A stretch of 64,000 nt of DNA from an uncultured Thermomicrobiales bacterium (lineage in GTDB: Bacteria > Chloroflexota > Chloroflexia > Thermomicrobiales > UBA6265): contig CAXTHM010000013.1 of assembly GCA_964244115.1 (NCBI GenBank), forward strand, positions 1,035 through 65,034, written 5' to 3'. Shown piece by piece: positions 15,812-64,000 of the stretch; the first letter of the stretch is position 1; each line of letters opens with the position of its first letter. A program made the translations under genes and the position numbers. A model generated the notes under the pieces. It saw only the letters and a program-made list of their open reading frames with translations, was not told where the DNA came from and made no database searches.

Positions 15812-16504
15812 ATGAGCGATTCGACGAATGAGAACGCCCAGAACCCGATCCTGGCTGGCAGCGACGCGCCGGTTGCCCCGGACACCGCGCCGGAGACAGT
15901 CAGCGCCGAGCTGCTGACGGACGACGAGGCGGCCGTCGTCGGCTCCGTCGCGTCCCCCGGTGAGGCCGCCGACACGACGGACGACGCCGAGACCCTCGCT
16001 CCGACCGCCGCCGTCGCGTCGGACGACGCCGAGACCATCGCGCTGGCGGCTGTGGATGCGACGGGCGACGCCGAGACCATCGCGCCGACCGCTGTCACGC
16101 TGCCGGTCATGGCCGCGCCGGGACAGGGCAAGCGCTCGGCGGACCGCTCGAAGCGCGGGCCGATCCGCCCCGAGGGACCCAAGCCGCTCGGCCACTACGC
16201 GGTAATCGAGACCGGGGGCAAGCAGTACCGAGTCAGCGTCGGTGACCGGATCGCCGTCGAGCGGCTCGAAGGTGACGAGGGGTCCGAAGTCACCCTCGAT
16301 CGCGTACTGATGGTCGGCGGCGACGGAGCTCCCCAGATCGGGGCTCCGATGCTGGACGGCGTCGCCGTCACCGCCACGATCGAGAACCAGTACCGGGGCG
16401 AGAAGATCATCGTCTTCAAGATGAAGCCGAAGAAGCGCTACCGTCGTCGGACCGGCCATCGCCAGAACCTCACCCGTCTGTCGATCACGGCCATCAACGC
16501 CTAG
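15812..16504 (+). CDS. rplU: Ribosomal protein L21 with a long acidic repeat-containing N-terminal extension
   Basis: C-terminal 105 aa YAVIETGGKQYRV...KKRYRRRTGHRQ is canonical L21. The upstream 125 aa keep GC3 bias and contain three DDAET(L/I)A repeats. An alternative start at the ATG around 16109 would shorten the extension to about 29 aa. Confidence 0.85.
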   Translation: MSDSTNENAQNPILAGSDAPVAPDTAPETVSAELLTDDEAAVVGSVASPGEAADTTDDAETLAPTAAVASDDAETIALAAVDATGDAETIAPTAVTLPVMAAPGQGKRSADRSKRGPIRPEGPKPLGHYAVIETGGKQYRVSVGDRIAVERLEGDEGSEVTLDRVLMVGGDGAPQIGAPMLDGVAVTATIENQYRGEKIIVFKMKPKKRYRRRTGHRQNLTRLSITAINA

Positions 16505-17519: not shown

Positions 17520-17532
17520 CCGCTGGACGGCG

Positions 17533-17655
17533 TTGCTCCCCTCTCCGGGCACCTGCGGAGCCGCAGCACAGCGAGCGCCGCGTGGGGCGGGGGAGCCAAG
17601 CAGGTGAGCCGGAGAGAGGTCTCGCTTCGCTGGGGGAAGCAGTCTGCGCCGCCAC
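17533..17655 (-). repeat. Intergenic structured repeat, X-type, copy 2 (reverse orientation, no TIRs seen)
   Basis: TTGCTCCCCTCTCCGGGCACCTGCGGAGCC...GCGAGCGCCGCGTGGGGCGGG...GTCTGCGCCGCCAC is the reverse complement of blocks in copies 1 and 4. Confidence 0.65.
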
Positions 17656-17680
17656 CGCGCGACGTTCGACAAGACACGCC

Positions 17681-18607
17681 TTACTCCGCTACCGCATCCG
17701 AGGCGGTATGTTGGCGGGATGATGACGCCCGGAAGCCCCGGAGTTGCCCGAGGCGCATGTTGCTCATCATCGCCGCCGAGGCGAGGATGACGGCGAACCC
17801 GACGAATGTGCCGAGCGAGAGTCTCTCGTCGAGCAGCAACGCGCCCCAGAGCACCCCGAAGGCCGGCGTGAAGTAGGTGGCGATGTTGGCCCGGAACGGA
17901 CCGATCCTCCGCATCAGGCGGAAGAACAGCAGGTAGGCCACCCCGGTCGTGAACAGGCCCAGCCCGAGTACCGACAGGATCGCCTCGTCCGACGGGCGGG
18001 ACGCCGGGACGGTGGCGGCGGCGAACGGCAGCAGCACCACGGCGGCCGTCAGTTGCTGCATGATCGGGATCGCCACTCCCGCCTTGGTCCGGAGCATCCG
18101 GGCCGAGTAGTGCGTCCCGATGCCGTAGCACAGCGCGGCCCCGACGACGGCGGCGATCGAGAGGATGACGCCGAGACCAAACGTCAGCGGCGTCCAGCCG
18201 ACGAGCAGGACCACCCCGCCCAGACCGAACGTGACTCCGGCCATCTGCCGGCCCGACAGCGGATCGCGCAACCAGACTCAGCCGACCAGGGCGGTGAAGA
18301 CCGGGGTCGTCGCGATCAGGATCGAGGAGATGGATGCGGGTAGCTCCGTCGCCGCGAACGAGATCAGCGTGAACGGGATCGCCGTGTTCATCGTTCCGAG
18401 CAGCAGGTACTGGCGCCAGCGGGTCCGGATGTCGAGGCTGATCCCACCCGGCAGCGCGACGGCGAGCAGCAGCAGTCCACCGATGATGACCCGGAGGTCG
18501 GCGACCGGCACCGGGTTGAACTCGGGGGACGCCACCCGCATGAAGAGGAACGACGCGCCCCAGAGCGCGCCGAGCGTGAACAGACCAGCGATGTCGATCG
18601 GCCGCAT
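17681..18607 (-). pseudogene. EamA/DMT-family transporter interrupted by one in-frame TGA (18278-18280)
   Basis: ORFs 18278..18796 and 17681..18271 are in the same frame and read ...TPVFTALVG*VWLRDPLSGRQMAG.... Together they give about 10 TM segments, typical of a two-EamA-domain protein. Confidence 0.7.
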
Positions 18608-18737
18608 GTGACCTGCTTCCCTGCTGGCAAAGGTGGGGCCGTCCGGCCTGAGATGATCGCGTATCCTTGCCACGCGCCGGAGACGAACGAATCGCGCCCG
18701 ACGCGCCCGTAGCTCCACCGAGGATGACCAGCCCGAC

Positions 18738-19301
18738 ATGACAGCGCCGCCGCCGTACCCCACCACCCGGACGTCGACCGGTGAGGTCCCCTGCACCTAT
18801 CACAAGGACGTCATGACACGGCTGCGCTGCTCCCGCTGCGCTAAGCCCATCTGCCCGAAGGAAGCGGTCCGGACGCCGGTCGGTCTGCGCTGCCCGGATT
18901 GCGCCGGCGTCCGCGGCCTGCCGACGTACCGCACCCCCTCGACCTCGATCGCCCGCGCGGCGGGACTCGGCCTCGCCGTGGCGGTGGTCGTCGGGGTCGT
19001 CTGGGGCTTCTTCCCGGCCTGGCAATTCTACCTTGCCCTCGCGCTCGGATTCGGCTCCGTCGAGGTCATGGCCCGGGCGGCCAAATTCAAGCGCGGCCGG
19101 GATCTCCAGTTGACGGCGATCGCGATCGTCGTCGTCGGGCTGGCCGTCAGCCGGATCGTGCTGTCGCAGCGGCTCGACATCCCGCTCGGCGAGATCAATC
19201 AACTCGGCGACTTCGCCACGTACTATCTCCAGTTGCGCCTGATCCCGGACCTGATCTACGCCGTCATCCCGATCCTGATCGCCTGGTTCCGGTTCCGGTG
19301 A
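18738..19301 (+). CDS. B-box/zinc-ribbon membrane protein
   Basis: N-terminal CTYH-x8-CSRCAKPIC-x11-CPDC followed by 4 hydrophobic segments. The stop overlaps the murJ GTG as GTGA. Confidence 0.6.
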   Translation: MTAPPPYPTTRTSTGEVPCTYHKDVMTRLRCSRCAKPICPKEAVRTPVGLRCPDCAGVRGLPTYRTPSTSIARAAGLGLAVAVVVGVVWGFFPAWQFYLALALGFGSVEVMARAAKFKRGRDLQLTAIAIVVVGLAVSRIVLSQRLDIPLGEINQLGDFATYYLQLRLIPDLIYAVIPILIAWFRFR

Positions 19302-35453: not shown

Positions 35454-36218
35454 ATGCCACCCAACTCTCCGGCAAGCCCATCGTCGCCCGCCCAGTCGAG
35501 GTCGATCCCGACGGTGATGGCGAACCGGACCATCCGGCTGGCGTCCGGCCGCCTGATGACCGGCAAGGTCGATCTCGCGGTCTCGGGGGAGGGCAACGTC
35601 CCGGCGACCGGACCGGTCGTGCTGGCCGCCCGCCACTATCATCACCTGTTCGATGGGACGAGCATCCTCACGACGCTCAAGCGTCCGCTACGGGTCATGG
35701 TGGCGCTGGACTGGGTCACCGCTGGCGCCCAGCGCCGGATCGCCGAAAGGCTCTGCTCGGTAGCCGGCTGGCCGGTCGTGCTGCGACCGGACGCCGAGAA
35801 GTACCGACCCGAGCTGGCGGCTGACCCGGCAAGAACCGCCGAGTATCAGCGCGACACGACCCGGTACCTCAAGCGAGCGGCGGTCCAGAGCGTCGAGATC
35901 CTCTCGCGGGGCGGTGCCCTGCTGATGTTCCCGGAGGGGTATCCGAACATCGACCCCTCCTTCACCCCGAAGAGCGACCGCAACGACGACTTCCTGCCGA
36001 CCCTGCCCGGCGCCGTCAGGATTCCCCTCCTCGCCCAGTCCGCCGGTCTGGCACCCGTCCCCATCGTCCCGGTCGGCCTGCACTATCGACGCGTCGGCGA
36101 CGACCGCTGGGCGATCCAGCTGCGGTTCGGCGAGCCGCTGTTCGCCACCGATCGTCGTCGGGTCGATAGCACCGTCGCCCATCTCGGTGCGACGATCCGG
36201 CGCCTGTCGGTGGAGTAG
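35454..36218 (+). CDS. PlsC-type acyltransferase, carotenoid glycoside acyltransferase candidate (CruD-like)
   Basis: HxxxxD-type block HYHHLFDG and the FPEGYPN block. The start is uncertain, with an alternative ATG at 35517. Confidence 0.65.
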   Translation: MPPNSPASPSSPAQSRSIPTVMANRTIRLASGRLMTGKVDLAVSGEGNVPATGPVVLAARHYHHLFDGTSILTTLKRPLRVMVALDWVTAGAQRRIAERLCSVAGWPVVLRPDAEKYRPELAADPARTAEYQRDTTRYLKRAAVQSVEILSRGGALLMFPEGYPNIDPSFTPKSDRNDDFLPTLPGAVRIPLLAQSAGLAPVPIVPVGLHYRRVGDDRWAIQLRFGEPLFATDRRRVDSTVAHLGATIRRLSVE

Positions 36219-36242
36219 CGTGGGTGAGCTGAAACACGTCTG

Positions 36243-36692
36243 GTGGCGGAGCAGACCTATCCTACGATCCCTTCCCCGCTCATACGGAATCCGGTTGAAG
36301 AGCCGTCATTCTCCCGAAGCCAGTCGGTAGCAGACCTCTCCCCCGACCCCTCTCCGGCTCGGCTCGTCGCTCACCCGCCAAAGGCGGCTTCGGCTCCTCA
36401 CCGCCCGGAGAGGGGAGTCCTCACCCGGATTCGGTATCACCTCCAGCGCGGTTCATAGCGGTTGACGGTGGAGCGAGCTCCCCCTCTCCATCCGGTCCGG
36501 ACGGAGTCGCCCGCAGGTGACGGAGGCGAACCGAGATGGGGAGGGAGTCGGGGGGTGGGGCTGACCGCTCGCGCCGACGAGGGCCATGAGATCCGCTCTA
36601 GTGGTCTGTCAGGGCTCATCGGCTTCCCCGGAGTTGACCTCTCCCCCGAGGGGTCACGAGTCCACCGACCATCTACCCGGATCCGGTATCAG
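36243..36692. repeat. Composite array of intergenic repeats (an X-type element with TIRs plus a Y-type hairpin module)
   Basis: GTGGCGGAGCAGACC (36243). TIR CATACGGAATCCGGTTGAAG (36281-36300) and its partner CACCCGGATTCGGTATCAC (36422-36440). Y module at 36461-36598, matching 62120-62258. Terminal TACCCGGATCCGGTATCAG (36674-36692). Confidence 0.7.
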
Positions 36693-36711
36693 GCGGCCGC
36701 GGCAAACCGTT

Positions 36712-37749
36712 CTAGACGCCGCGCGTCCAGAGGCTCCCGCCGAGCTGCAACGACAGGAAATCGACCGTGATCAGCGGCATCGCCCGGAGCTTGCGGCGGG
36801 TGCTGACGTGGGCGCGACCATGGAACGGGTCGCAGTCCTGCTCCTCGATCCGGTCGAGGATCTTGCTGTAGAGGCGGCTGATCGCGATCGTCGTGAGTTG
36901 ACCGGACGGGCAGAGTGCCGGAATGCCCAGCCGGCCAGAGCGGTAGTAGCTCCGGGCCCGATCGATCTGGAACCGCATCAGCCCCGACATGTCCCCCGTC
37001 GGACGGCCACCGAGCAACGACGCCGGGTCGATCCCGAACCGGGCCAGTTCCCCATGCGGGAGATAGAGCCGTCCGACGCTGGCATCCTCGGCCACGTCGC
37101 GGAGGATGTTCGTCAGTTGCATCGCGATCCCCAGGTCGACGGCGTGGGTCAGGGCGCGTTCGTCGCGGCAGCCGAAGACGGGCGCCGCGATCAACCCGAT
37201 CGTCCCGGCGACGCAGTAGCAGTACTCCCGCAGGTCGTCCCAGTCGGCGTAGCTGCGCGGCGCCAGGTCGTGCCGCATGCCCCGGAGCAGGTCGAGGACC
37301 GGCCCCAGCGGGATGTCGTACCGTCGCCGGGCGACAGCGAACGCTACCGCGACCGGGTGTTCCGGACGGTAGAGTTCGGCCTCCCAGCGGTCGAGCGAGG
37401 CCGAGATGTCGGCCGGACTGACCTCGCCGGCGAGGTCGACGATGTCATCGGCGATCCGGCAGTAGGCATAGGCGGCGGCGATCGCATTACGGCGGTCGAT
37501 CGCGAGGAACCGGCTCCCGAACGAGAAGGTCCGGGCGTGCAGGCGGAGCAGATCCCAGCATGGCTGCCAGTCGGGTTCGATGCCGGGATCGATCGACGCC
37601 GCTCCCGTGTCGACCGGAGCCAGGGCGGAGGGATCGATGTCGGCCGAGCGATCGGACCGGGTCGGATGGCCCTCCGGCGCTCCGGTGACTCCTCGATAGC
37701 TCACTCGTGGACTGGATGAAGGCGTGATGGTGCGACCGGCCCGCGACAA
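36712..37749 (-). CDS. crtB: Phytoene synthase
   Basis: FSFGSRFL...AYAYCRIADDIVD (first Asp-rich motif) and NILRDVAED (second). Confidence 0.85.
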   Translation of the reverse strand: MSRAGRTITPSSSPRVSYRGVTGAPEGHPTRSDRSADIDPSALAPVDTGAASIDPGIEPDWQPCWDLLRLHARTFSFGSRFLAIDRRNAIAAAYAYCRIADDIVDLAGEVSPADISASLDRWEAELYRPEHPVAVAFAVARRRYDIPLGPVLDLLRGMRHDLAPRSYADWDDLREYCYCVAGTIGLIAAPVFGCRDERALTHAVDLGIAMQLTNILRDVAEDASVGRLYLPHGELARFGIDPASLLGGRPTGDMSGLMRFQIDRARSYYRSGRLGIPALCPSGQLTTIAISRLYSKILDRIEEQDCDPFHGRAHVSTRRKLRAMPLITVDFLSLQLGGSLWTRGV

Positions 37750-42119: not shown

Positions 42120-44657
42120 ATGAGTTCAGGCCGGATCACCCGTGCCCGCATGCGTCACCCGTCCGCCCGGCGCCGCGCCGCGATCTATTCCCGCAGCCAG
42201 TACGGCACCCGGCTCCGCTCCCTGCCGCCGCACCTCCTGCCCGGGGTCTCGGGCCGCGGGCAGAAGCGGTCGCGCAAGCTGCCCATCTTCCTCGTCGCCT
42301 TCGCCCTGGTCGGCATCGCGTTCACCGCCGTCGCGGGCGTCGCACTGACGGCCTCGTCAGCAGTCGGCGTCAACATGACCATCGACGAATACCAGGACGT
42401 GACCGGCTCCCTGCCCGACGCGGAGAACATCTTCTCGGAGACGTTCCAGACCACCCGGATCTATGACCGGGACGGGAACCTGCTTCAGGACGTCGACGAC
42501 CCCAACGGCTACTGGCGGACCTTCGTCCCCTACGACCAGATCTCGCCCGACCTCGTCAACGCGACGATCGCCGCCGAGGACGCCACCTACTGGACCCATG
42601 AAGGGGTCGAACCGATCGCGATCGTCCGCGGCGCCTTCATCATCTTCACCGGGGCCGGGTCGTCCGGCGGTTCGACGATCACCCAGCAGCTCGTCCGCGC
42701 GCTCTACCAGGAGGAGATCGGCAACGACTACGCCGTGTCGCGCAAGGTGCGCGAGGCGATGGCGGCCATCAAGCTGAATCAGGACTTCACCAAGACCGAC
42801 ATCCTGACCATGTACCTCAACCAGATCTTCTACGGGCAACGCTCGTACGGGATCGAGGCGGCCTCGGTGATGTACTTCGACAAGCACGCCTCCGAGCTGG
42901 ACCTGGCCGAGGCCTCGCTGCTGGCCGGCATCCCGCAGCTCCCGACCGCCTACAACCCGGTCGTCAACCTCGACTTCGCCAAGCAGCGCCAGGAGTACGT
43001 GCTCGACCAGATGGTCAAGCTCGGCTACACGACCCGGGCCGAAGCCGACGCGGCGTTCGCGGAGACGCTGAACATTCGCGGCGATCGCTCCGGCCAGGTC
43101 CTCGACGACCCGCACTTCACCCAGTACGTCCGCGAGTTCATCACGCAGAAGTACGGCGAGGACGCCCTCTACCGCGGCGGGCTCCGGGTCTACACCTCGA
43201 TCGACAGCGAGCTCCAGGACGCCGCCGAGCAGATCGTGCAGGAGGGTGTGGCGGAGGCCGGGCCATACAGCGTCTCGAACGGGGCGGCGGTGATCGCTTC
43301 GCCGGACACGGGCGAGATCCTGGCGATGGTCGGTTCAGCCGACTTCGACGACCCGCTGATCTCCGGGGAGGTCAACATGGCGACTTCCCCGCGACAGCCG
43401 GGCTCGACGATGAAGCCAATCGTCTACGCTGCCGCCTTCGAGCAGATGCACTGGAACCCCGGCACGGTCCTGCTCGACACCCCGTTCGAGCGCCCGACGG
43501 ATGATCCGAACGAACCATACGCTCCGGGCAACTTCACAGGAAGCTTCTATGGGGCGGTTACCATCCGGACAGCACTCTCCAACTCCCTGAACATCCCGGC
43601 TCTGAAGGCTGCCGACAATGTTCAACCGTCGGCCGTCATGGAGATGTCGACCCGCCTCGGCAACTCGACGCCGTTTCCTGAGGACGCCAATTACTACGGT
43701 TTACAGATCGCCCTGGGTGGTGCCGAGATCCCGCTGGTCGACATGGTGAACTCCTACGCCACGATCGCGAACGAGGGCAGGTACGTCCCCTTCAACCCGA
43801 TTACGAGGATCGAGGACGCGCAGGGCAACGTCCTCTACCAGCTCGACCCGGCGACGTCGCTCACCAACGCCCCGCAGGTCCTGCGGTCCGAGTACGCCTA
43901 CCAGCTGATCGACATCCTGAGCGACAACCAGGCCCGGCAGATGCTGTTCGGGCAGGGCAACATCGCCGAGACGACCCAGCAGGCGCTCGGTCGGCAGATG
44001 GGCACCAAGTCCGGTACGACCAACGACGTCAAGGACAGCCTTCGGATGGGCTTCACGACGGCAGCCGTCGTCGGGGTCTGGACGGGCAACACGGACACCT
44101 CGCCGATGCAGCCGACGCCCGGCAATATCGGGACCGACGCGATCTGGAGCGAGCTGATGCTCCTGATCCACCAGGACCCGCGCTTCACGGACCTGATCGA
44201 GGACGCCGGCGGCAACGCCTACCCGTCGGACTTCGCCCGGCCCGAAGGCATCTACGAGGGGCCGGTCTGCGCCGGGACGAGCCACAACCCCGGTGACGGC
44301 GACGCGACCCGGACCGAACTGCTCGCCCGCGGCAATGAGCCCGTCCTGCTCTGCGACCAGATGTCAGACTGGGAGCAGCGCGACCTGCAGGAGGCCCTCG
44401 ACGGCATCGGCGACCGTCGGCTGGTCGGTGGCGCGGCCGACAGCGTCCGGGAATACGCCAACGAGATCAGCGGCGGCCGGCAGGGCGGCGGTCGCAGCCC
44501 GAGCCAGTCGATCACCTCGACCAACTCCGGCCAGCCCGACCCGAGCGACAGTGGCAACGGGACCGGCAACCCAGCCGGTCCCAGCTCGCCGGCAGATGGC
44601 ACCCAGCCGGGTCAGCAACCGAGTAGCCAACCGTCGATCCAGCCGGTCAACGGGTAA
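42120..44657 (+). CDS. Bifunctional penicillin-binding protein 1A (glycosyltransferase 51 + transpeptidase)
   Basis: GT51 motifs EDATYWTHEGV and GGSTITQQLVR. Transpeptidase motifs STMKP, SNS and KSGTT. N-terminal TM anchor and a low-complexity C-terminal tail. Confidence 0.9.
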   Translation: MSSGRITRARMRHPSARRRAAIYSRSQYGTRLRSLPPHLLPGVSGRGQKRSRKLPIFLVAFALVGIAFTAVAGVALTASSAVGVNMTIDEYQDVTGSLPDAENIFSETFQTTRIYDRDGNLLQDVDDPNGYWRTFVPYDQISPDLVNATIAAEDATYWTHEGVEPIAIVRGAFIIFTGAGSSGGSTITQQLVRALYQEEIGNDYAVSRKVREAMAAIKLNQDFTKTDILTMYLNQIFYGQRSYGIEAASVMYFDKHASELDLAEASLLAGIPQLPTAYNPVVNLDFAKQRQEYVLDQMVKLGYTTRAEADAAFAETLNIRGDRSGQVLDDPHFTQYVREFITQKYGEDALYRGGLRVYTSIDSELQDAAEQIVQEGVAEAGPYSVSNGAAVIASPDTGEILAMVGSADFDDPLISGEVNMATSPRQPGSTMKPIVYAAAFEQMHWNPGTVLLDTPFERPTDDPNEPYAPGNFTGSFYGAVTIRTALSNSLNIPALKAADNVQPSAVMEMSTRLGNSTPFPEDANYYGLQIALGGAEIPLVDMVNSYATIANEGRYVPFNPITRIEDAQGNVLYQLDPATSLTNAPQVLRSEYAYQLIDILSDNQARQMLFGQGNIAETTQQALGRQMGTKSGTTNDVKDSLRMGFTTAAVVGVWTGNTDTSPMQPTPGNIGTDAIWSELMLLIHQDPRFTDLIEDAGGNAYPSDFARPEGIYEGPVCAGTSHNPGDGDATRTELLARGNEPVLLCDQMSDWEQRDLQEALDGIGDRRLVGGAADSVREYANEISGGRQGGGRSPSQSITSTNSGQPDPSDSGNGTGNPAGPSSPADGTQPGQQPSSQPSIQPVNG

Positions 44658-44861
44658 TACGGAATCCGGGTAAACGGTTGTTGGCCCCTTGACACCTGGG
44701 TGGCGGAGCAGACCGCTCCCCCAGCAGAGCGAGACCCCGCTCCGGCTCACCTGTTCGCTCACCCGCTGGCTCGGCTCTCGCTGCGCTGCGGCTCGCAGGT
44801 GCCCAGAGCGGGGAGCAGCACCCACCTGCGGTCACGCACCAAGCGTCAACCCGGATTCCGT
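44658..44861 (+). mobile_element. MITE-like full-length copy of the X-type repeat with terminal inverted repeats
   Basis: 204 bp starting immediately after the PBP1A TAA. TIRs are TACGGAATCCGGGT (44658-44671) and ACCCGGATTCCGT (44849-44861). Internal blocks GTGGCGGAGCAGACCGCTCCCC and GCAGGTGCCCAGAGCGGGGAGCA are shared with the other copies. No transposase ORF. Confidence 0.7.
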
Positions 44862-44988
44862 CTAATCGCCAGCGTTCGTCCTGATCTCACAAAACCGCGA
44901 TCGCAGGCAAGCGACGAGCCGCACGCTCATCCCAGCGTGCGGCTCGTCTCATGGCCGAGGAAAGCGTTCTGATCGTGCCGGGAGAGGA

Positions 44989-54711: not shown

Positions 54712-55392
54712 ATGACTCAGCGAGACGATCCCTCTGACGACGTGGATACGACCGGCGAGGACCCGAAAGGCTTCGCCCTGCACCGACGCCTGCTGGAGCG
54801 GGACCCCGTGGCCCGACGCCAGTTCTGGAATCGCTATTTCGACGCGCTCGCTCACTATGCGACCAGCCGGATCTTCGACACCGTCAGCCGTGAGGATGCG
54901 GGCCGCACCCTCTCCATGCACGTCATCGAGGCCATGATCGACCGCCCGGAGCGATTCGATCCGACCCGCGGCAAGAGCCTCTACGGCTATCTGATGATGG
55001 ACCTCAAGGGCGACATCGCGAACTACCTCGCCAAGCTCACGCGGGAGCCGCGGCCGATCCGGCTGGACGCACCGATCGGTGGTGACGGCGACGATGTCGG
55101 AAACCAGGACCTGGGTGGGAACCTTCCTTCGGGCGAACCTGGCCCCCAGGAGATCGCCGAATCCGCCGAGAGCCAGGCCCGGGTCGACGCGATCCGGAGA
55201 CGGGTCGTCGAGACGGACGAGGAGGGCATCGTCTTCGACCTGCAGTACGTCGCGGGGGAACGCGCGACCGACGCCTTCGCCACCGCCCTGGGGCTCACCG
55301 GGGTGCCCTCGGGCGAGCAGGCCCTGGTCGTCCAGAAACTGAAGGATCGACTGGCGAAACGACTTCGCCGGATGCGAGAGGACGAACGATGA
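54712..55392 (+). CDS. Sigma-70 family (ECF-like) protein
   Basis: Region 2-like RFDPTRGKSLYGYLMMDLKGDIANYL. Region 4-like IVFDLQYVAGERATDAFATALGLT...LKDRLAKRLRR. GGAGG RBS. The stop overlaps the next ATG (ATGA). Confidence 0.6.
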   Translation: MTQRDDPSDDVDTTGEDPKGFALHRRLLERDPVARRQFWNRYFDALAHYATSRIFDTVSREDAGRTLSMHVIEAMIDRPERFDPTRGKSLYGYLMMDLKGDIANYLAKLTREPRPIRLDAPIGGDGDDVGNQDLGGNLPSGEPGPQEIAESAESQARVDAIRRRVVETDEEGIVFDLQYVAGERATDAFATALGLTGVPSGEQALVVQKLKDRLAKRLRRMREDER

Positions 55393-55874
55393 ACGAGGAC
55401 GCGAACAACGTCGCGACTCGACCAGACGATGACGCGGACGATGAGACGTTCAGACCGACCCCACTCACGGCGGATCAGCTCGCCTGGCTGCGGGATCGGG
55501 CGGCGATCCGGGACTCCGCCCTCGGCAGCCAGCTGCTCCGGTTCCGGGAGCAGGAAGGCTGGACGCACGAACAGCTCGCCGACCACCTCGGCCTGACGCC
55601 CGAGGGGCTTGATCGGCTCAGTCTCTCCGGCCGGCCGCGCAAGGACCGGTTCGCCGCCGATGTCCGGGCCATCGCCGCCGACAGTGGCGTCCCCGACCTA
55701 CAACTGATGCAGCTCCTCCGGGCGGTCGAGAGCCGGGACGCCTTCGTCGGCTCCCAGGCGGCCCGACGGATCGTCGCGGCCGCCCGTGACCACGACGACC
55801 AGACACCATCGCCCGCCGAGCAGCGCCTCCGCGAGGCGAGCGAACCGGAGCAGTCCGAAGACGATCACCGGTGA
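55389..55874 (+). CDS. XRE-family helix-turn-helix protein
   Basis: LLRFREQEGWTHEQLADHLGLTPEGLDRLSLSGRP fits the HTH_3 pattern. Coupled to both neighbours by 4-nt overlaps. Confidence 0.6.
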   Translation: MNEDANNVATRPDDDADDETFRPTPLTADQLAWLRDRAAIRDSALGSQLLRFREQEGWTHEQLADHLGLTPEGLDRLSLSGRPRKDRFAADVRAIAADSGVPDLQLMQLLRAVESRDAFVGSQAARRIVAAARDHDDQTPSPAEQRLREASEPEQSEDDHR

Positions 55875-56590
55875 CCCGAGCGGAACTGGTCGGTGTCGCC
55901 GAGCGATTCTGGTCGCGGTCCGGCATGGAACCGCCCGAGCCGCGCTCGGTCCGGATCGCCATCTCCTGGGTCCACTCCGTCCGCGTCGAGACCCAGCCGG
56001 CGCTGTCGATCGCGACGATCCAGTCCTGGATGGCCGGGCAGGGGTTCACCGTCCCGATCGACGACCCGAACCGGCGGCTGCGCGGCTGCGCGGTCGCCTC
56101 GGCTGGTTGCGGCCTGATCTTCGTCGACGCCAGCGACCCGGCCGATGAGCGCGAGTTCACGGTCGCCCATGAGGTCGCCCACCTCCTCCTCGACTACTAC
56201 GGTCCCCGCGACCACGCGACGGACCTGATCGGTGAGGGTGCCCACGAGGTCTTCGATGGCGCCCGTGACGCGTCGTACTCCGAGCGACTCGCCGCCGCCC
56301 TGCACGGGGAAGCCCTCCAGCCCTTCGTCCACCTCCTCGCCCGCGATGCCAACTTCGTCGCCTCCGCCGCGGTCCTGGCGCGTGAGGCCCTCGCCGACGA
56401 ACTCGCCTGCGAACTCCTCGCCCCGCTGGCGGCCGTCCGCTCCGCCCTCCCGCCCTCCTGGGACCAGGCCGACGCGACCGCCATGCTGGTCAGCCGGTTC
56501 CGCTTGCCCGAGGGCGCCGCCCGGGACTACGCCCGGCGGCTGGCTCACCGCTTCCAGCCCACCCCGACCTTCGTCGACTGGCTTGGCTGA
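55871..56590 (+). CDS. ImmA/IrrE-family zinc metallopeptidase (M78)
   Basis: HEXXH in FTVAHEVAHLLLDY. The downstream EALADELACELLAP matches the family E..A..FA..LL.P block. Confidence 0.75.
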   Translation: MTRAELVGVAERFWSRSGMEPPEPRSVRIAISWVHSVRVETQPALSIATIQSWMAGQGFTVPIDDPNRRLRGCAVASAGCGLIFVDASDPADEREFTVAHEVAHLLLDYYGPRDHATDLIGEGAHEVFDGARDASYSERLAAALHGEALQPFVHLLARDANFVASAAVLAREALADELACELLAPLAAVRSALPPSWDQADATAMLVSRFRLPEGAARDYARRLAHRFQPTPTFVDWLG

Positions 56591-56692
56591 GGCCCTTCAT
56601 CGCCCGGCGACACGGTCTGGTTCCCGTCCCGGCTGGCCGTGCGGTACGCTGACCGGTACGCGAAGGTCCCGACCGTATGACGAAGGCGATGC

Positions 56693-57910
56693 ATGTCGAT
56701 CTCTGGACAGGACTCCGACGGCGCGATCGGCCCCGACGACGGGCTCGACGGTCCGATGGTCGACAACGAGCTGATCGACGACATCGCCTTCCAGCGTGCC
56801 TTCAATGAGCCGCTCGCCCAGACGCTCGACCTGGCGACCTGGCCCCGTGGCGGCGACATGATCGCCCTCTACCATCAACTCGAGCGCGAGATCGTCTCGG
56901 CGGCGCGGGATGAGGAGTCCCACCTCGACGAGATCCGGCGAACCGTCCTGCCGCACCTGAGCCAGCGCCCCAACCGGCCCGAGCAGACCGGTGTCTATCA
57001 CCTGACCCTGGATGATCTCCGCCGGGCGCACCGATCGATCCTGTTCAACGGCGGCGTCGAGGCCGCCCGCGGCACCGTCGCCGCCCACGACACGCTCGCC
57101 CTGACCGTGACCCAGCTCGGCGTCAGCCTCGTCAACTACCAGGGCGACCGCGGGACCTGGGGACACCGCCTGTTCCGGCGTGACCTGCGCTTTTCGGCCG
57201 GGGAGGTCGAGGACCTCGCGCTCCGCGTGATCCGGCAGCGGCAGGCCGGCGCCGCCGAGGACAGCGTCGCCGAGCGCCGGCTGACCCAGCTCGCCAGGCG
57301 GGGAATCCTGATGTACGCCGAGCGGTCCGCCCTGACCGACCAGGCGACGGCCCCCTGGCGCATGGGCTCCGGCACCCCGATCCCGTTCGAACTGGTGACC
57401 GGTGGCGGGAGCATGGAACTGGCGCTGCGGAGCGTCGACCTGCTCGACCGGCTCATCAATGGCCACAGGCGGTTCGTCTTCGTCTCGCCCGACACGCGCG
57501 AGCGCGGACTGATGACGATCGGCCACGCCCTCAAGCCGCTGGAATACGCCATCGTCGACGACGGCCTGCCCCGGCTCCGCTCGCTGGTCGATCGCGCCAA
57601 CTACACCCGGCGCGAACGCGATCGCATCGAGACCTTCATCGCGGAGACCGGCCCGGTCCTGCGTCTTGGGGTCTACCGGGCTTCCGAGATCGGTCCGCCG
57701 CGGCTGTTCTACGGGCATCAGGACCACATCCATGAGGCGGCGCTGGTCGCGATCGCCGATAGTGTCCTGCATGAGCACCGGGCCTTCCCGATGTTGCTGG
57801 ACCTGGCCGAACAGGTCTGCCGCGGGATGTTCCCCGCCAGTGAGCTGGCCGAGACGACCCGACTGGCCTACCTCGATGCCGGAGCGCCCCCGCGCTACGG
57901 GCTCGACTGA
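56693..57910 (+). CDS. Hypothetical protein, NurA-like nuclease candidate (partner of the HerA-like ATPase)
   Basis: 405 aa with GAAGG RBS. The stop lies 11 nt before the HerA-like start. Weak resemblance to NurA blocks (VAAHDTLALT...QLGVSLVNY and C-terminal AFPMLLDLAEQV). The assignment rests mainly on gene context. Confidence 0.4.
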   Translation: MSISGQDSDGAIGPDDGLDGPMVDNELIDDIAFQRAFNEPLAQTLDLATWPRGGDMIALYHQLEREIVSAARDEESHLDEIRRTVLPHLSQRPNRPEQTGVYHLTLDDLRRAHRSILFNGGVEAARGTVAAHDTLALTVTQLGVSLVNYQGDRGTWGHRLFRRDLRFSAGEVEDLALRVIRQRQAGAAEDSVAERRLTQLARRGILMYAERSALTDQATAPWRMGSGTPIPFELVTGGGSMELALRSVDLLDRLINGHRRFVFVSPDTRERGLMTIGHALKPLEYAIVDDGLPRLRSLVDRANYTRRERDRIETFIAETGPVLRLGVYRASEIGPPRLFYGHQDHIHEAALVAIADSVLHEHRAFPMLLDLAEQVCRGMFPASELAETTRLAYLDAGAPPRYGLD

Positions 57911-57921
57911 GGACGAGGACG

Positions 57922-60030
57922 ATGGTGCGTAGCTGGTTCAACTCCCCGAAGGACAAGTCGCAGGCGAAGGACGAAGAGGCGGAAGCGCCCTCGTTCTGGC
58001 CGCCCCTCAAGGCCGACCTGCCCGAGGCGCCCGCGCCCGCGCTCTGGCCCCCGCCGGCCGCACCGGCCGATTCCACCGACGACATCGCGTCCGAAGTCGT
58101 CGCCGGGACCGATCCGGCGCCAGCTGCCACCCCGGTCAAACCCGATCCGGCGGTTGCGTGGTCCGAGCCCGTGTCAGTGTCTCCGGCACCTGCTGTTCCG
58201 TCATTCGCCCCGGAATTGCCGGTGGACGAGTGGAGCAGCACCCCGACCCCCAGCGAGACCGCGGCGCGACTCGAACAGACCGGCCTCTCGAACAGCCTCG
58301 ATCCCTGGATTCCCGACACGGTCAACGGCGTGGTCGGGCACACGATGTACGACCTGCCCAACAGCGAGGACGGGACGATCACCGTCCTGCTGCCCCGCGA
58401 GCACATCGCCGCGACGCCGAGCCAGGCCCTCGTCCGGATCGCCAGCGGCGACCGGCGCACCTACCTCGGCATCGTCGTGGCCGGGCCGTTCGCCGAGCCG
58501 GACGGGCTCCGGGCCGACGCCAACCTGATCGTCACGACCAGCGTCCGCAGCCAGCCGTTCCAGCCCCAGTTCCACGGCCGGATCAAGGTCGAACTGCTCG
58601 GCGAGGAGATCAACCGCGTCATCCAGGCGCCCCGGTTCCGGCCGCTGCCCGGAAGCCCCGTCACCGTCCTCGACGACGAGGAGACGACCCGCGTCCTGCA
58701 GGTCTCGGGCGACCTCCGCCTCGGGCGGGCGGTCGGCCACGACGATGTCCCGGTCGGCCTGCCGTCGCGGAGCAAGAACATCCTGCCCCGGCACCTCGGC
58801 ATCGTCGGCACGACCGGCGGCGGCAAGTCGACCACCGTCGCCGGGCTGCTGGCGGAGGGTCAGCGGGCCGGCCTCGCCATCGTGCTGCTGGATGTCGAGG
58901 GCGAGTACACCCACGTCCATGAGCCGACGAGCGACCCGACGATGGTCCGGCTCCTCGCCCACGATGGCCGTGAGCCGGCTGGCATCCCCGGCACCCACCT
59001 CTATCGCCTGGTCGGGCGAGACACGACCAATGAGGCCCATCCGAACTCCCACGAGTTCAGCCTCCGGTTCAGCGATCTCTCGCCCTACACCGTCGCCGAG
59101 ATCCTCGATCTGAACGAGGTCCAGCAGGAGCGCTACCTGCAGGCGTACGATGTCGCCAAGTCGCTCGCCGCCGAGGGGAGACTCCGCGGCGGCACCCCGA
59201 ACGTCGACATCGCCGAGCTGGACGACTTCGAGCAGGGCTGCCCCGGCGTCACCCTCGCCATCATGCGGAGCCTGATCGGCGCGTTCATCGGCGTGGCGGA
59301 CAAGGGCGAGCCCACGATCACCGAGCCGGCCATCGCGGACCAGTCCGCCACGATCCTGGCCAGGATCCGGGACCGCAAGCCTTCCAGCCCGGTGAGCTGG
59401 AAGGCTGTCCAGAGCCGGCTGGGCCGACTGCAACGCCTCCGGGTCTTCGACACCGCCCGGGGGCAGGCCGTGCCGCTGGACCTCGACACGCTGCTGGCGC
59501 CGGGCCGGGTCAACATCTTCGACCTCTCCGACATCGACGGGACCGACCTGCGCAACATCGTCATCGCGGACCTGCTGCGCGGCCTCCAGACCGCCCAGGA
59601 GCGTCGCTACGCGGCCTACGAGCGCGCTGACAAGGCCGACGGGCCGCCGCGGACCCTGGTCATCATCGAGGAGGCCCACGAGTTCCTGGCCCGGAACCGG
59701 GTCTCGAGCATGCCGGTCCTGTTCGCCCAGGTCGAGCGGATCGCCAAGCGGGGCCGGAAGCGCTGGCTCGGGCTTGCCTTCGTCACGCAGTTGCCGCAGC
59801 ATCTCGCTCCGCAGGTCTCGGCCCTGATCAACAACTGGGTGATCCACAAGGTCGCCGACCCGGCCGCGATCAGCGACCTGCGTCAGTCCGTCAGCGGCGT
59901 CGATGACAGCCTCTGGCAGACCGTCCGTGGCCTCGCGCCCGGTCAGGCCGTGGTCGCCTGCGGCCACATGACCCGCCCCGTCCTGACCGCGATCCACCCG
60001 GCCGCCGCCCAGCTCCGGATGGTGGACTAG
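57922..60030 (+). CDS. HerA/FtsK-like hexameric ATPase (DUF87-type) with a HAS-barrel and a Pro-rich N-terminal extension
   Basis: Walker A GIVGTTGGGKST and Walker B TLVIIEEAHEFL. Barrel-like region VGHTMYDLP...ALVRIAS...YLGIVVAG. The N-terminal approximately 125 aa are P/A-rich. Confidence 0.8.
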   Translation: MVRSWFNSPKDKSQAKDEEAEAPSFWPPLKADLPEAPAPALWPPPAAPADSTDDIASEVVAGTDPAPAATPVKPDPAVAWSEPVSVSPAPAVPSFAPELPVDEWSSTPTPSETAARLEQTGLSNSLDPWIPDTVNGVVGHTMYDLPNSEDGTITVLLPREHIAATPSQALVRIASGDRRTYLGIVVAGPFAEPDGLRADANLIVTTSVRSQPFQPQFHGRIKVELLGEEINRVIQAPRFRPLPGSPVTVLDDEETTRVLQVSGDLRLGRAVGHDDVPVGLPSRSKNILPRHLGIVGTTGGGKSTTVAGLLAEGQRAGLAIVLLDVEGEYTHVHEPTSDPTMVRLLAHDGREPAGIPGTHLYRLVGRDTTNEAHPNSHEFSLRFSDLSPYTVAEILDLNEVQQERYLQAYDVAKSLAAEGRLRGGTPNVDIAELDDFEQGCPGVTLAIMRSLIGAFIGVADKGEPTITEPAIADQSATILARIRDRKPSSPVSWKAVQSRLGRLQRLRVFDTARGQAVPLDLDTLLAPGRVNIFDLSDIDGTDLRNIVIADLLRGLQTAQERRYAAYERADKADGPPRTLVIIEEAHEFLARNRVSSMPVLFAQVERIAKRGRKRWLGLAFVTQLPQHLAPQVSALINNWVIHKVADPAAISDLRQSVSGVDDSLWQTVRGLAPGQAVVACGHMTRPVLTAIHPAAAQLRMVD

Positions 60031-60243
60031 GCGCAGCGAGTTCGAAGCGATCGGGTGGACCGTAGGCGACGGTGCGGCCCTGAGGGGACCGGCTGAACGA
60101 CATCGGTGGCGCTCATGGCTGGCCGTTGGGTGGCGTGACGTCACAACGACAATGGTGTCGCAACGAGGCGCAGAGGTCAGTTTGGTTGAGCCGGTCGCTG
60201 GCGGCAGGCTCCAGGCGAAGTCGTCGAACTGCATGGGCGGGTG

Positions 60244-60353
60244 TTGCTCCCCGCTCCGGGCACCGGTGAGCCGTAGCGCGGCGAGAGCCGCCTGTAGCGG
60301 GTGACCGAACAGGTGAGCCGAAGAGGGGCTAGGGGAGCGGTCTGCTCCGCCAC
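60244..60353 (-). repeat. Intergenic structured repeat, X-type, copy 5 (reverse orientation)
   Basis: TTGCTCCCCGCTCCGGGCACC...GGGGAGCGGTCTGCTCCGCCAC is the reverse complement of blocks at 44700-44820. Confidence 0.6.
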
Positions 60354-61128: not shown

Positions 61129-61938
61129 ATGATCTTCAACACGCCGGACCGGATCAGGGCACTGACGCCGTCGAACCCGTTCGGCCGGATGCCGGACGGT
61201 CGGCCGATGGTTCCGGATGATCTCCTCGAGCGGATGAAGCTCGTGACCAACGACGAGGCCTGGGCGACCATGGAGTCCGGCCACGGCTACAGGTACCAGT
61301 TCTCGGGCGGGTGGTTGAACATGCACCCGGACCGCATCCTGGTCGGGCGCGTCGTCACGGCCCAGTTCGTCCCGATCCGGCCGGACTTCCACGATGTCGT
61401 CGCCGGGATCGGCGAGCGCTAGGGTCGCAGCGGCGGCCAGAACACCTGGGTGATCGACTCGCTCGGCCCCCACGACGTCCTCGTCGTCGACATCTTCGGC
61501 AAGATCCGCGACGGCACGGTGATCGGCGACAACCTCTCGACCGCGATCGCGTCGAAGACGAAGGCCGGCATCGTCATCAACGGCGCCGTCCGGGACTACG
61601 TCCGGATCCGCGAGCTGGAGAACTTCAACGTCTTCCACAAGGGCATGGACCCGACCCCGATCCGGGAGGTGACGCTGGCTGCGGTCAACGTCCCGATCCG
61701 GATCGACGACGTCACCGTCATGCCCGGCGACGTCGTCCTCGGGACACCGGAGGGGATCTCGTTCGTCCCGCCGCACCTTGCCCAGCAGGTCGTCGAGGAA
61801 TCCGAGAACACGCGCCAGCGGGACGTCTTCGGCAAGCTCCGCCTGCATCAGGGCACGTACACGACCGGCGAGATTGACCGGCCAGAGTGGGCCGACCACA
61901 TCGAGGCCGACTATCTGGCCTGGGTGAAGACCAGCTAA
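61129..61938 (+). pseudogene. RraA-like / HMG aldolase-family protein interrupted by one in-frame TAG (61420-61422)
   Basis: ORFs 60649..61422 and 61450..61938 share a frame and read ...DVVAGIGER*GRSGGQNTWVIDSLGPHDVLVVDIFGK...GIVINGAVRD...MPGDVVLG.... ATG at 61129 with GGGGAG upstream. Confidence 0.7.
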
Positions 61939-61969
61939 CGGTCTGGCCCATAGCCACCACGCTGGCGCC

Positions 61970-62103
61970 GAGGCAGGTTCACCCCCGGCCGGGCAGGAAC
62001 CTGCTCACTCACCCGCCCCATGCGGCTCCCCCTGCGTCCCGGCTATCAGGTGGCCGCAGAGGGGAGCCATAACATCTCTTTCGCCTGAGCAACCCGGTGT
62101 CTC
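61970..62103 (+). repeat. Intergenic structured repeat, X-type, copy 6 (degenerate)
   Basis: GAGGCAGGTTCACCCC...CTCACTCACCCGCCCCATGCGGC...CAGGTGGCCGCAGAGGGGAGCC...AACCCGGTGTCTC is collinear with copy 1. Confidence 0.6.
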
Positions 62104-62119
62104 TAGCGCGGCTCATGGA

Positions 62120-62258
62120 GGTCGACGGTGAAACTGCCTCCCCCTCTCCATCCGGGTCCGCCTCCGTCCCCTGCCGGCGACTCCGTCCGGACCCGGATGG
62201 AGAGGGGGCCGGGGATTGGGCTCGCCGCTCGCGAGCGACAAGGACCAGGAGATCCGCT
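62120..62258 (+). repeat. Y-type hairpin repeat module (partner of 36461-36598)
   Basis: The flanks GTCGACGGTG...CTCCCCCTCTCCATCCGG and GCCGCTCGCG...GAGATCCGCTC are co-oriented with the copy at 36461. 19-bp stem, 62139-62157 paired with 62189-62207. Confidence 0.7.
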
Positions 62259-62485
62259 CGAAGCCGCTGGAGAACGTCCCAGACACCGGGGGGTATCCCT
62301 CTGACCGTCCCGTACGCCACGGGTCGGCATCGTCCGGACCGGTTTCCCCGCGCGACCGGTCGGCGAAGCTGCGATCAACCGATCGATCGATGGGAACCAG
62401 CCTGACGACACACCGCGGTCAGCGCGTCTGCGCTGTCGGCTCACCCGGAACAGGGTACGATCGTGGCTGACGGCTGAAGACCATG

Positions 62486-62525
62486 CCCGGTCCGATCCGG
62501 CCCGATCCGGCCCGGCCCGGCCCGG
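62486..62525. repeat. Short tandem repeats (CCGATCCGGC x2, CCCGG x3)
   Basis: cccggTCCGATCCGGCCCGATCCGGCCCGGCCCGGCCCGG, read directly. About 15 nt upstream of the aldehyde dehydrogenase RBS. Confidence 0.6.
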
Positions 62526-62553
62526 ACGATCCTGCGAATAGGAGCGACCTCCC

Positions 62554-64000
62554 GTGACGACGACCGCCATCCCAGCGCCCGGCAACCTGATCAACGGCAC
62601 CTGGCAGCCCGCCGCCTCCGGGCAGACCTTCGAGAACCGCAACCCGGCGGACACCGACGACATCGTCGCCCACCACGCCGCCTCGGACGACTGCGATCTC
62701 GACGCCGCCTTCGGGGCCGCCGCGGCCGCCTTCCCGGCCTGGCGCCGGACGCCCGGCATCGCCCGCGGCAACATCCTCTACAGGGCGGCCGAGCTCCTCG
62801 CCAGCCGGGCCGAGTCCGTCGCCCGCGAGCTGACCCGCGAGGAGGGCAAGACGCTCAAGGAGGCGACCGGCGAGACGCTGCGGGCCGTCGCCATCCTGCG
62901 CTATTTCGCCGGCGAGACCGCCCAGCCCAGCGGCGAGACCTACCCCTCGGCCAACCCGAACACGATGCTCTACACCCTGCGCGAGCCGCTCGGCGTGATC
63001 ACGATCATCACGCCCTGGAACTTCCCGATCGCGATCCCGGCCTGGAAACTCGTCCCGGCACTGGCCTACGGCAACTGCGTCGTGATCAAGCCGGCCAGCG
63101 ACGCGCCGCTCTGCACGATCCGGCTGGCCGAGTGCCTGGTCGAGGCGGGGCTGCCGGCCGGGGTCCTCAACGTCGTCACCGGCAGCGCCAGCGCCCTCGG
63201 CGACCGGCTCGTCACCGACGAGCGGTCGGTCGCGGTCTCCTTCACCGGCTCCGACGCGACCGGCCGCCACATCCAGCAATTGGCGACGACCCACCACAAG
63301 AAGGTCCAGCTCGAGCTCGGCGGCAAGAACCCGGCGATCGTCCTGGCCGACGCCGACCTCGAGCACGCCCTGACCCAGGTCATCAACGGCGCGATGATGA
63401 GCACCGGCCAGAAGTGCACCGCCACCAGCCGGGCGATCGTCGACCGCCACATCGCGGCCGAGTTCACCGAGCGGCTCGCCCAGAAGATCGGCGCTCTGAC
63501 CGTCGGCAACGGGCTCGACGGCGCCACGCAGGTCGGACCGCTGATCAACGCCGCCGCCGCGAAGAGCGTCGCCGACGGGGTGGCGGCGGCCCGGAGCGAG
63601 GGCGCCAAACTGCTGGTCGGCGGGGCCCGGCTGGGTGGCGATGGCCACGCCCGCGGTCATTTCGTCGCCCCGGCTCTATTCAACGAGGTCTCCCCGACCT
63701 CGACCCTCGGACAGGACGAGCTGTTCGGCCCGGTCCTCGGTGTGATCCCGGTCGACGGGATGGACGAGGCGATCAGCGTCGCCAACAACGTCCGCTACGG
63801 CCTCTCGGCGTCACTGTTCACCCGTGACCTGACCCGGGCGCTCCGCTTCGTCCAGGAGATCCAGGCCGGTATCGTCCACGTCAACAGCGAGACGGCCGGC
63901 GCTGAGCCGCAGGTACCGTTCGGCGGCTACAAGGGCAGCAGCTCCTACAGCCGTGAGCAGGGCAAGTCCGCCCGCGAGTTCTTCACCCAGCTCAAGACCG
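62554..64000 (+). CDS. NAD(P)+-dependent aldehyde dehydrogenase (alpha-ketoglutaric/succinic semialdehyde dehydrogenase-like), 3' end outside the window
   Basis: GTG at 62554 with AGGAG upstream. VQLELGGKNP (catalytic Glu), GQKCTATSR (catalytic Cys) and EELFGPV-like DELFGPV. The ORF is open to the window end. Confidence 0.9.
   Translation, partial: MTTTAIPAPGNLINGTWQPAASGQTFENRNPADTDDIVAHHAASDDCDLDAAFGAAAAAFPAWRRTPGIARGNILYRAAELLASRAESVARELTREEGKTLKEATGETLRAVAILRYFAGETAQPSGETYPSANPNTMLYTLREPLGVITIITPWNFPIAIPAWKLVPALAYGNCVVIKPASDAPLCTIRLAECLVEAGLPAGVLNVVTGSASALGDRLVTDERSVAVSFTGSDATGRHIQQLATTHHKKVQLELGGKNPAIVLADADLEHALTQVINGAMMSTGQKCTATSRAIVDRHIAAEFTERLAQKIGALTVGNGLDGATQVGPLINAAAAKSVADGVAAARSEGAKLLVGGARLGGDGHARGHFVAPALFNEVSPTSTLGQDELFGPVLGVIPVDGMDEAISVANNVRYGLSASLFTRDLTRALRFVQEIQAGIVHVNSETAGAEPQVPFGGYKGSSSYSREQGKSAREFFTQLKT

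Follow-up and report, generated by a model that had tools for sequence, protein, structure and literature searches.

An inverted loop and a perfected stem in one copy of a dispersed intergenic hairpin repeat of Thermomicrobiales: a probable product of a single template switch

The window, that is, the whole 64-kb stretch of DNA analyzed, is chromosomal, has a G+C content of about 70%, and carries (Pfam scans) genes for haem biosynthesis, ribosomal proteins L21, L27, and L31, MurJ, acetyl-CoA synthetase, a carotenoid cluster, and fatty-acid synthesis. Two of its intergenic spacers are described here. At locus A, 493 nt separate a convergent acyltransferase gene (end at 36218) from the phytoene synthase gene crtB (stop at 36712); at locus B, 615 nt separate an RraA-like gene (end at 61938) from an aldehyde dehydrogenase gene (start at about 62554). 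Relatives of the aldehyde dehydrogenase are 83–94% identical, several lower-ranked matches (83% or less) being source-labelled Thermomicrobiales, and the contigs that carry these relatives are syntenic with the window at 82–91% nucleotide identity.

Several coding regions of the window have peculiarities of their own. The RraA-like gene has an in-frame TAG at 61420–61422, where two orthologues have GAG (Glu); the protein (269 aa) is otherwise highly conserved, and the gene is either a very recent pseudogene or contains a sequence error. A G-rich tandem repeat with a period of 21 nt occupies 2336–2710 within a 913-aa ORF on the minus strand (1642–4383) that has no Pfam match; ribosomal protein L21 is extended N-terminally by about 127 aa, encoded by a 42-nt tandem repeat at 15955–16095. 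Two EamA-domain ORFs on the minus strand, 17681–18271 and 18278–18796, lie 6 nt apart; they may represent one 10-TM transporter gene split by a frameshift or else a pair of half-size genes. The four-gene block at 55389–60030 (HTH_31, IrrE-like M78 peptidase, a 405-aa protein without family, HerA/DUF87 ATPase) is syntenic in all relatives examined and may be a defence or stress module.

Each of the two spacers contains one copy of Y, an intergenic mosaic repeat of about 160 nt composed of a 5' flank (AGCGCGGCTCAY.GGGGTTGACGG...), a hairpin, a G-rich tail (YCGGGGGGTGGGGC), and a 3' flank (...CCGCTCGC..CGACAAGG...ATGAGAYCCGCTCTA). Both copies are adjoined upstream by an element of another repeat family, X:

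36280–36439, plus strand: X-family element adjoining Y copy A, with inverted ends of the ACCCGGATTCCGTATCA type; self-BLAST and end-motif matches.
36441–36603, plus strand: Y module, copy A; nhmmer with the five-copy profile, E=2e-41.
61966–62098, plus strand: X-family element X5 adjoining Y copy B, with a degenerate end motif, CAACCCGGTGTCT; self-BLAST and end-motif matches.
62101–62263, plus strand: Y module, copy B, flanks co-oriented with those of copy A; nhmmer, E=1e-37, and flank tests.

The five-copy Y profile finds five full copies in the window and the retrieved sequences of relatives: A, B, L046:4053–4213, L004:169–327, and L176:17204–17363. L046 and L004 are loci of a Thermomicrobiales metagenome-assembled genome (MAG; OZ244595/OZ244596), both on OZ244596; L176 is a metagenome contig syntenic with the carotenoid cluster of the window. 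Copy A is 84.9% identical to the MAG copy at L046:4053–4210. Conservation is uneven along the module: the 5' arm of the hairpin, hereafter L (the 3' arm is R), is invariant (17/17 positions in 5/5 copies), the cores are 81–92% conserved against 60–77% for the flanks, and in every pair of copies the hairpin is better conserved than its flanks. The termini of copy A, AGCGCGGTTCAT ... ATGAGATCCGCTCT, are weakly complementary, the complementarity of the Y ends being partial (z=4.5, shuffle test). A rod-like structure is possible in the consensus fold of the five modules; the covariation term is unfavourable, and therefore no structured RNA gene is claimed for Y. Rfam at the gathering threshold gave nothing in the window; at a permissive threshold, both loci gave only sub-threshold miRNA-like hairpin look-alikes, plus an M23 match in the X element.

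X is likewise dispersed and intergenic, up to about 210 nt long, with inverted ends ACGGAATCCGGGT...ACCCGGATTCCGT. Six copies were located in the window: 1246–1391, 17520–17656 (minus strand), 36280–36439, 44655–44865 (the fullest copy), 60236–60328 (minus strand), and 61966–62098. The distance from the end of X to the start of Y is 3–5 nt at both Y loci. A further copy of an X end is found at 36675–36691, downstream of Y copy A.

The hairpin of copy A extends over 36478–36547 and that of copy B over 62138–62210, within co-oriented flanks that are about 75% identical. A preliminary description of this DNA had reported a 32-nt core inverted between two repeat copies; this is confirmed by self-BLAST and shuffle tests, the two cores being reverse complements at 30 of 32 positions. 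The same description had placed the start of copy B at 62137; the copy is present there, and the exact match of its arm moves the start to 62138. The 18-nt arm CTCCCCCTCTCCATCCGG occurs exactly at 36478–36495 and 62138–62155, and its complement occurs with two mismatches at 62193–62210 (chance expectation, 0.26 matches). A 22-nt pattern from the core matches the plus strand at 36496–36517 and the minus strand at 62170–62191. Self-BLAST aligned 36441–36598 directly with 62101–62259 (73.8% over 160 nt), and 36480–36545 in inverted orientation with 62208–62142 (89.6% over 67 nt). In shuffle tests the upstream flanks aligned directly (28/38, z=8.8), as did the downstream flanks (41/57, z=12.8), and the cores aligned only after one had been reverse-complemented (32/37, z=12.5; direct, z=2.5). 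Since direct flanks and an inverted core both stand far above shuffled sequence, the flip is real and not an alignment artefact; the concern that the flanks might prove not to be co-oriented is thereby settled. The parts of the two hairpins are as follows (rc, reverse complement):

36478–36495, plus strand: L arm of copy A, CTCCCCCTCTCCATCCGG; exact match, identical (17/17 compared) in 5/5 Y modules.
36496–36530, plus strand: core of copy A, loop class ii, in the presumed ancestral orientation; orientation as in L004:204 and L046:4175, and fold.
36531–36547, plus strand: R arm of copy A, CCGAGATGGGGAGGGAG, canonical, with a G opposite the T of the L arm and a bulged A; family census and fold.
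36548–36561, plus strand: G-rich tail of copy A, TCGGGGGGTGGGGC, conserved family-wide 3' of the hairpin; 14/14 identical to the MAG Y copies.
62138–62155, plus strand: 5' arm of copy B, of canonical L type and not rc(R); arm match and model comparison.
62156–62192, plus strand: core of copy B, the reverse complement of the core of copy A; 30/32 over the 32-nt core, by BLAST, pattern search, and shuffle tests.
62193–62208, plus strand: 3' arm of copy B, CCGGATGGAGAGGGGG, the exact complement of L, with neither wobble nor bulge; arm match and fold.
62209–62222, plus strand: degenerate tail of copy B, CCGGGGATTGGGCT; 9/14 identical to the family tail.

The preliminary description had arms and flanks keep the same orientation in both copies. 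The flanks do align directly; the arms, however, are not the same, L and R being imperfectly matched in copy A, whereas in copy B the 3' arm complements the 5' arm exactly. Relative to the R arm, copy B has an A in place of the G that faces T, and the bulged A is absent. Its stem is consequently a perfect 21 bp, 62140–62160 pairing with 62188–62208, and as DNA it folds at -30.4/-33.4 kcal/mol (z about -7.5), compared with -17.4 kcal/mol (z -1.5) for copy A, in whose core an inner stem GTCGCC/GGTGAC closes a CGCA loop. Around this perfect stem copy B is decayed: its flanks are identical to those of A at 27/37 and 33/43 positions (73–77%) and its tail at 9/14 to that of the family. Its core, 35/43 identical to that of A, is within the family norm.

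The hairpin is found beyond the Y module, in a family whose census (MAG loci, L176, and the window) amounts to about 19 hairpins. A scan of a genome collection with the 18-nt arm placed the family in one genome only, the Thermomicrobiales MAG (7 loci), 41 of the 48 loci obtained being chance matches; one related metagenome contig, L176, also has it. Three proteins encoded in the window had no exact match on record, which places the genome of the window outside that collection. A match at L045 was rejected as a member, being a chance match in coding sequence. The degenerate core pattern, too short for the metagenome collection, gave chance matches only among the matches listed, and the family was not found in scans of viral contigs or by plasmid BLAST. 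The canonical hairpin consists of an L arm, CCCCCTCTCCATCCG / (C)CCCCTCTCCATCCG, a loop, an R arm, CGAGATGGGGAGGGGG, and a tail, YNGGGGGGTGGGGC; L is C-rich and 16–18 nt long, R is G-rich, the loop is variable, and the G-rich tail is conserved. L and R are not exact complements: a T of L faces a G of R, as a T·G wobble, and R has an A that bulges out. In 12 of the 19 family hairpins R has the form CGAGATGGGG, with both features. Folded as RNA, the tail-bearing strand is the more stable one: -72.1 vs. -61.8 kcal/mol for the complement in copy A, -86.5 vs. -73.7 kcal/mol in L046. All family copies are intergenic; by rough GC3 gene calls, 14 contexts could be scored, none of them divergent (6 convergent, 8 co-directional).

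The loops inside these shared arms fall into classes that are unrelated in sequence: ten copies have a short loop, TGARGACCNNAGGGAYGAA or a variant of it; four, A and B among them, share the 35-nt loop; and L038:3804 and L176 have a 40-nt loop, ATTCCAGC...CTGGAAT. Minimal tetraloop versions also occur, the minimal hairpins, with loops of 4–17 nt, being L030:4690–4717, L038:6224–6251, and L006:6068–6108; in L030:4690 both arms are of R type, and this perfect palindrome is another homogenized copy of the family. In L046:535 an arm reads GGAGAG with the bulge retained, that is, the arm is partially corrected and the loop is not flipped. Arrays or inverted pairs with conserved linkers are present in the MAG at L030 (4477–4720), L038 (6220–6860), L007 (4514–4690), and L006 (6050–6240), where hairpin and tail invert as one, rc(tail)-rc(R)...rc(L); the window has single hairpin units only. 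The R arm and tail together (36534–36560 in the window; GGGGAGGGAGTCGGGGGGTGGGG in copy A, family consensus GGGGAGGGGGTCGGGGGGTGGGG) have, in the consensus, four G-runs of at least 4 with spacers of 1–2 nt, a strong G-quadruplex motif that would rival the hairpin. Copy B does not have this motif (GGAGAGGGGGCCGGGGATTGGG).

The spacers orthologous to loci A and B differ in their repeats. In L171, whose aldehyde dehydrogenase is 90% identical, the spacer between the RraA-like and aldehyde dehydrogenase genes is 241 nt and has neither X nor Y, its similarity to the window spacer being no better than that of shuffles; other relatives have four unrelated genes at this position, and no Y orthologue at locus B was found among the relatives examined. 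The spacer between crtB and the acyltransferase gene is empty in L176 (40 nt) and L180 (45 nt); in L175 and L181 it holds an X element that borders on the crtB stop codon or runs into it; L177 has REPs of GTAG type; the window has X, Y, and a further X end. Such presence and absence at orthologous spacers indicates that the repeats are dispersed and are gained and lost, as REP- or MITE-type elements are. No insertion boundaries or target duplication could be defined against the empty site of L171, the empty sites being too diverged. The convergent spacer (36219–36711 in the window) is thus a hot spot for differing repeats. The X at the crtB stop (L175:4785–4899, L181:4953–5200) is opposite in orientation to X-A of the window (36278–36387), and among the X copies it is X-A that the L175 copy resembles most, at 87% identity. 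The whole end-bounded block (36280–36691) could have been inverted, or the insertions could be independent; the L175 contig breaks off before the two can be distinguished.

Core orientation was tallied over the five copies of the Y module, as had been proposed at the outset, and it proved comparable in four of them. Copies A, L004:204, and L046:4175, from two genomes, have the 35-nt loop in one common orientation, B has it flipped, and L176 has another loop in the same frame. As the loop class of B has a single orientation in the three others, we infer from these paralogues that theirs is the ancestral orientation and that B is derived. The flip is accordingly confined to one of five Y modules and to none (0/10) of the short-loop hairpins. 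The arms single out the same copy: four of the five Y hairpins have canonical L and R arms and only B differs, and in the census only B has had both wobble and bulge replaced by the complement of L, and only B is flipped.

Copy B thus reads L + rc(core) + rc(L) + tail. Compared with models derived from A, it is 20 edits away if there was no event (direct alignment), 11 if the whole hairpin was inverted, 8 if the inversion was limited to the core (7 when the consensus R is used), and 7 from the product of a template switch; 2 of these last 7 are a terminal overhang and are gone if the return switch falls inside the G run. Template switch and core-only inversion differ at only two arm positions (7 vs. 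8 edits), and the pattern occurs in a single flipped copy; both points count against the template switch. A reciprocal crossover between the arms is excluded as the source of L...rc(L), because an outer crossover would place rc(R) 5' of the core and an inner one would leave R 3' of it. That the stem of B is perfect amid decayed flanks and a decayed tail fits an event that renewed the hairpin; the stem could also have been perfected separately, by selection or conversion, the arms being near-invariant family-wide.

We consider it probable that the flip in B arose by a one-off template switch during replication, which inverted the loop and perfected the stem, and that it is now a fixed fossil and not a switch. 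The nascent strand would have completed the L arm; nascent L would then have paired with R, its complement, either on the opposite strand or on a template that had folded, and the core and the L arm would have been copied backwards. The new rc(L) would have re-annealed at the position of R, and copying of the original template would have resumed at the end of the stem. The expected product has an inverted loop, an imperfect R overwritten by the perfect complement of L, and untouched flanks. Of the origins listed in the preliminary description, the anatomy, with its inverted core and rc(L) 3' arm, supports the first, an exchange across the inverted arms by recombination or template switching, and within it template switching specifically.

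The loop and the arm may instead have separate histories, the loop having been inverted by intramolecular recombination or cruciform processing, with a crossover beside the loop, and the R arm perfected on another occasion by point mutations, a 1-nt deletion, or quasi-palindrome correction. The core-only model costs just one more edit than the template switch, and L046:535 (GGAGAG, bulge kept, unflipped) demonstrates that the arm can change on its own. We nevertheless hold this course of events to be rather unlikely: it needs three independent changes, all restoring pairing, in a copy with decaying flanks and tail, and the sole fully homogenized L/L hairpin is also the sole flipped one. An ectopic source appears unlikely to a greater degree, whether gene conversion or an inter-locus template switch from a family copy aligned in reverse, or an L/L submodule inserted reversed into the Y frame. 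The hairpin does occur in several flank contexts, and in both orientations within arrays, and its conservation above that of the flanks in every pair would suit exchange between loci; but the array hairpins invert together with their tail, whereas B retains the tail 3' and L 5', no L/L donor copy was seen among the census sequences, and the 35/43 identity of the B core to that of A, being the family norm, does not require a recent donor. The earlier proposal of a palindromic submodule inserted in both orientations is disfavoured likewise, as a canonical hairpin placed in reverse would have rc(R) on the 5' side, where B has L. Incorrect assembly, with the spacer between perfect inverted repeats joined in the wrong orientation, might be suspected in view of the possible sequence error in the neighbouring RraA-like gene (a single TAG vs. 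GAG in orthologues). Such an error presupposes arms no shorter than the assembly k-mer, and those here measure 21 bp; moreover, a hairpin of 73 nt fits within single reads, and the conversion of R to rc(L) would be left unexplained. We regard it as very improbable.

Less probable still is a programmed flip-flop, in which an invertible or phase-variable element, or an intermediate of hairpin replication or single-stranded DNA transposition, would alternate between two states. Perfect inverted repeats of 21 bp would permit repeated inversion, and the MAG that carries the hairpin family also has a RAYT-like Y1 transposase. Pfam scans of about 50 ORFs in the 64-kb window, however, detected no recombinase, invertase, integrase, transposase (Y1 transposases included), or Rep; there is no promoter in the 35-nt spacer, no match to a sigma-70-type promoter in 61900–62600, and no promoter or terminator consensus in the spacer of either locus. 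To our knowledge, a spacer of 35 nt is far below the size of any known invertase substrate. With flipping limited to 1/5 Y copies and 0/10 short-loop copies, these findings speak against the invertible or phase-variable element that had been envisaged. The analogy with the flip/flop termini of hairpin-replicating elements fails as well, both copies lying at syntenic loci internal to a housekeeping chromosome and not at replicon ends, with no match in viral contigs. As to the proposed link with Y1 or RAYT enzymes, the RAYT-like gene of the MAG (L004:3638–4423; 29.9 bits vs. Pfam Y1_Tnp, 56.7 bits vs. NCBIfam REP_Tyr_transpos, cut-off 80) is flanked by REPs of its own GTAG kind (TCGTAGGGGCGACGC...), absent from the window, and not by the Y hairpin; it was rejected as the cognate of the latter. 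A slight chance is left to a related reading in which the conserved arms serve as a frame for active exchange or flipping of loops, suggested by the three unrelated loop classes within identical arms and tail; copy B, with its perfect 21-bp arms, might then undergo repeated flipping, driven either by strand switching independent of recA or by an enzyme that processes hairpins. If so, the transcript would have two loop states 350 nt ahead of the aldehyde dehydrogenase gene, and the hairpin would represent a novel type of very small element, invertible or cassette-bearing.

Two arrangements of Y1 genes were noted in the relatives. In L004:3500–4420 (MAG OZ244596), the RAYT-like Y1 gene has on either side an array of a GTAG-tagged REP (TCGTAGGGGCGACGCTTGCGAGCCCGG), the two arrays being inverted; this REP type is also present in L177:11040–11450 and not in the window. 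In L171:9950–10535, a close relative of the window genome, a 95-aa Y1_Tnp (IS200-like) fragment lies between inverted copies of a short palindrome (TCGGGCCTAAAGACCCGA / TCGGGTCTTTGGGCCCGA).

The hairpin lies downstream of genes, its G·T pairing differs between the strands, its L arm is invariant, and its core is better conserved than the flanks. These four traits suggest a REP-like role that depends on the stem, either as an RNA stem at 3' ends or as a DNA hairpin recognized by a protein or polymerase. If it is the stem that matters, inversion of the loop would be tolerated as long as the stem is kept or strengthened; the flip in B was probably tolerated for this reason, the function of the element depending on the stem and not on loop polarity. 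The family is apparently an undescribed REP/BIME-like mosaic of Thermomicrobiales, accompanied by the MITE-like family X. We know of no catalogue of the intergenic repeats of Thermomicrobiales. The mechanism of template switching is itself already known; the locus adds a clean bacterial case of one of its rarely documented outcomes, in which a single event would invert a loop as long as 35 nt and repair the stem. A flip/flop between repeat copies thus need not mean an invertase or hairpin-replication machinery. Uses are modest: strain-typing markers, a natural substrate of quasi-palindrome mutagenesis, and a candidate 3'-end RNA element.

Among known repeats, the Y hairpin resembles REP/BIME elements in being an imperfect palindrome with conserved asymmetry (wobble and bulge) and strand-favouring G·T pairs, in combining one stem with several loop variants, some of them self-complementary, and in lying between convergent or co-directional genes, with inverted pairs and arrays joined by linkers. 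REP families similarly have one stem with several loops, G·T pairing, and positions downstream of genes with inverted dimers (PMC3733652). The Y hairpin differs from them in the absence of a consistent GTAG or CGTC tag beside either arm (criteria of PMC3733652), in its longer stem (16–18 bp) and longer unit (50–70 nt plus the 14-nt tail), in its low copy number, and in that no cognate RAYT was found for it in the window and the retrieved loci. The module as a whole is similar to MITE-like mosaics (ERIC, Correia, BOX, RUP): about 160 nt, non-coding, with weakly complementary ends, a rod-like fold, a second repeat (X) as partner, and presence or absence at orthologous sites. Unlike these, Y has no definable target-site duplication or known parent IS, and the complementarity of its ends is imperfect and without covariation support.

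For the flip itself, hairpin-associated small inversions of 4–50 bp are common in plastid spacers (PMC12371153). In these non-coding inversions of the type of Kelchner & Wendel, loops of tens of bases flip between inverted repeats and the surroundings are unchanged, as in B; the plastid inversions are often recurrent and homoplasious at one locus, whereas B is a single flipped copy. The likeness is closer to template switching at quasi-palindromes (Ripley model), where the spacer is inverted, one arm is overwritten, and the flanks are left untouched, all as in B. In yeast genes, switches between imperfect inverted repeats have caused arm homogenization together with spacer inversion (PMC8604942, Figs 3–4), and the same pattern has been termed 'CM + loop inversion' in RNA hairpins (PMC8794818); the yeast REG2 case (PMC8604942, Fig 4) and the RNA pattern (PMC8794818) match the anatomy of B exactly. 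The spacer of B, at 35 nt, is longer than the 2–8 nt of those cases (PMC8604942, PMC8794818) and is within the range of the plastid inversions, which reach about 50 bp (PMC12371153). The published events are in a gene or in rRNA, and that of B is in a dispersed bacterial repeat.
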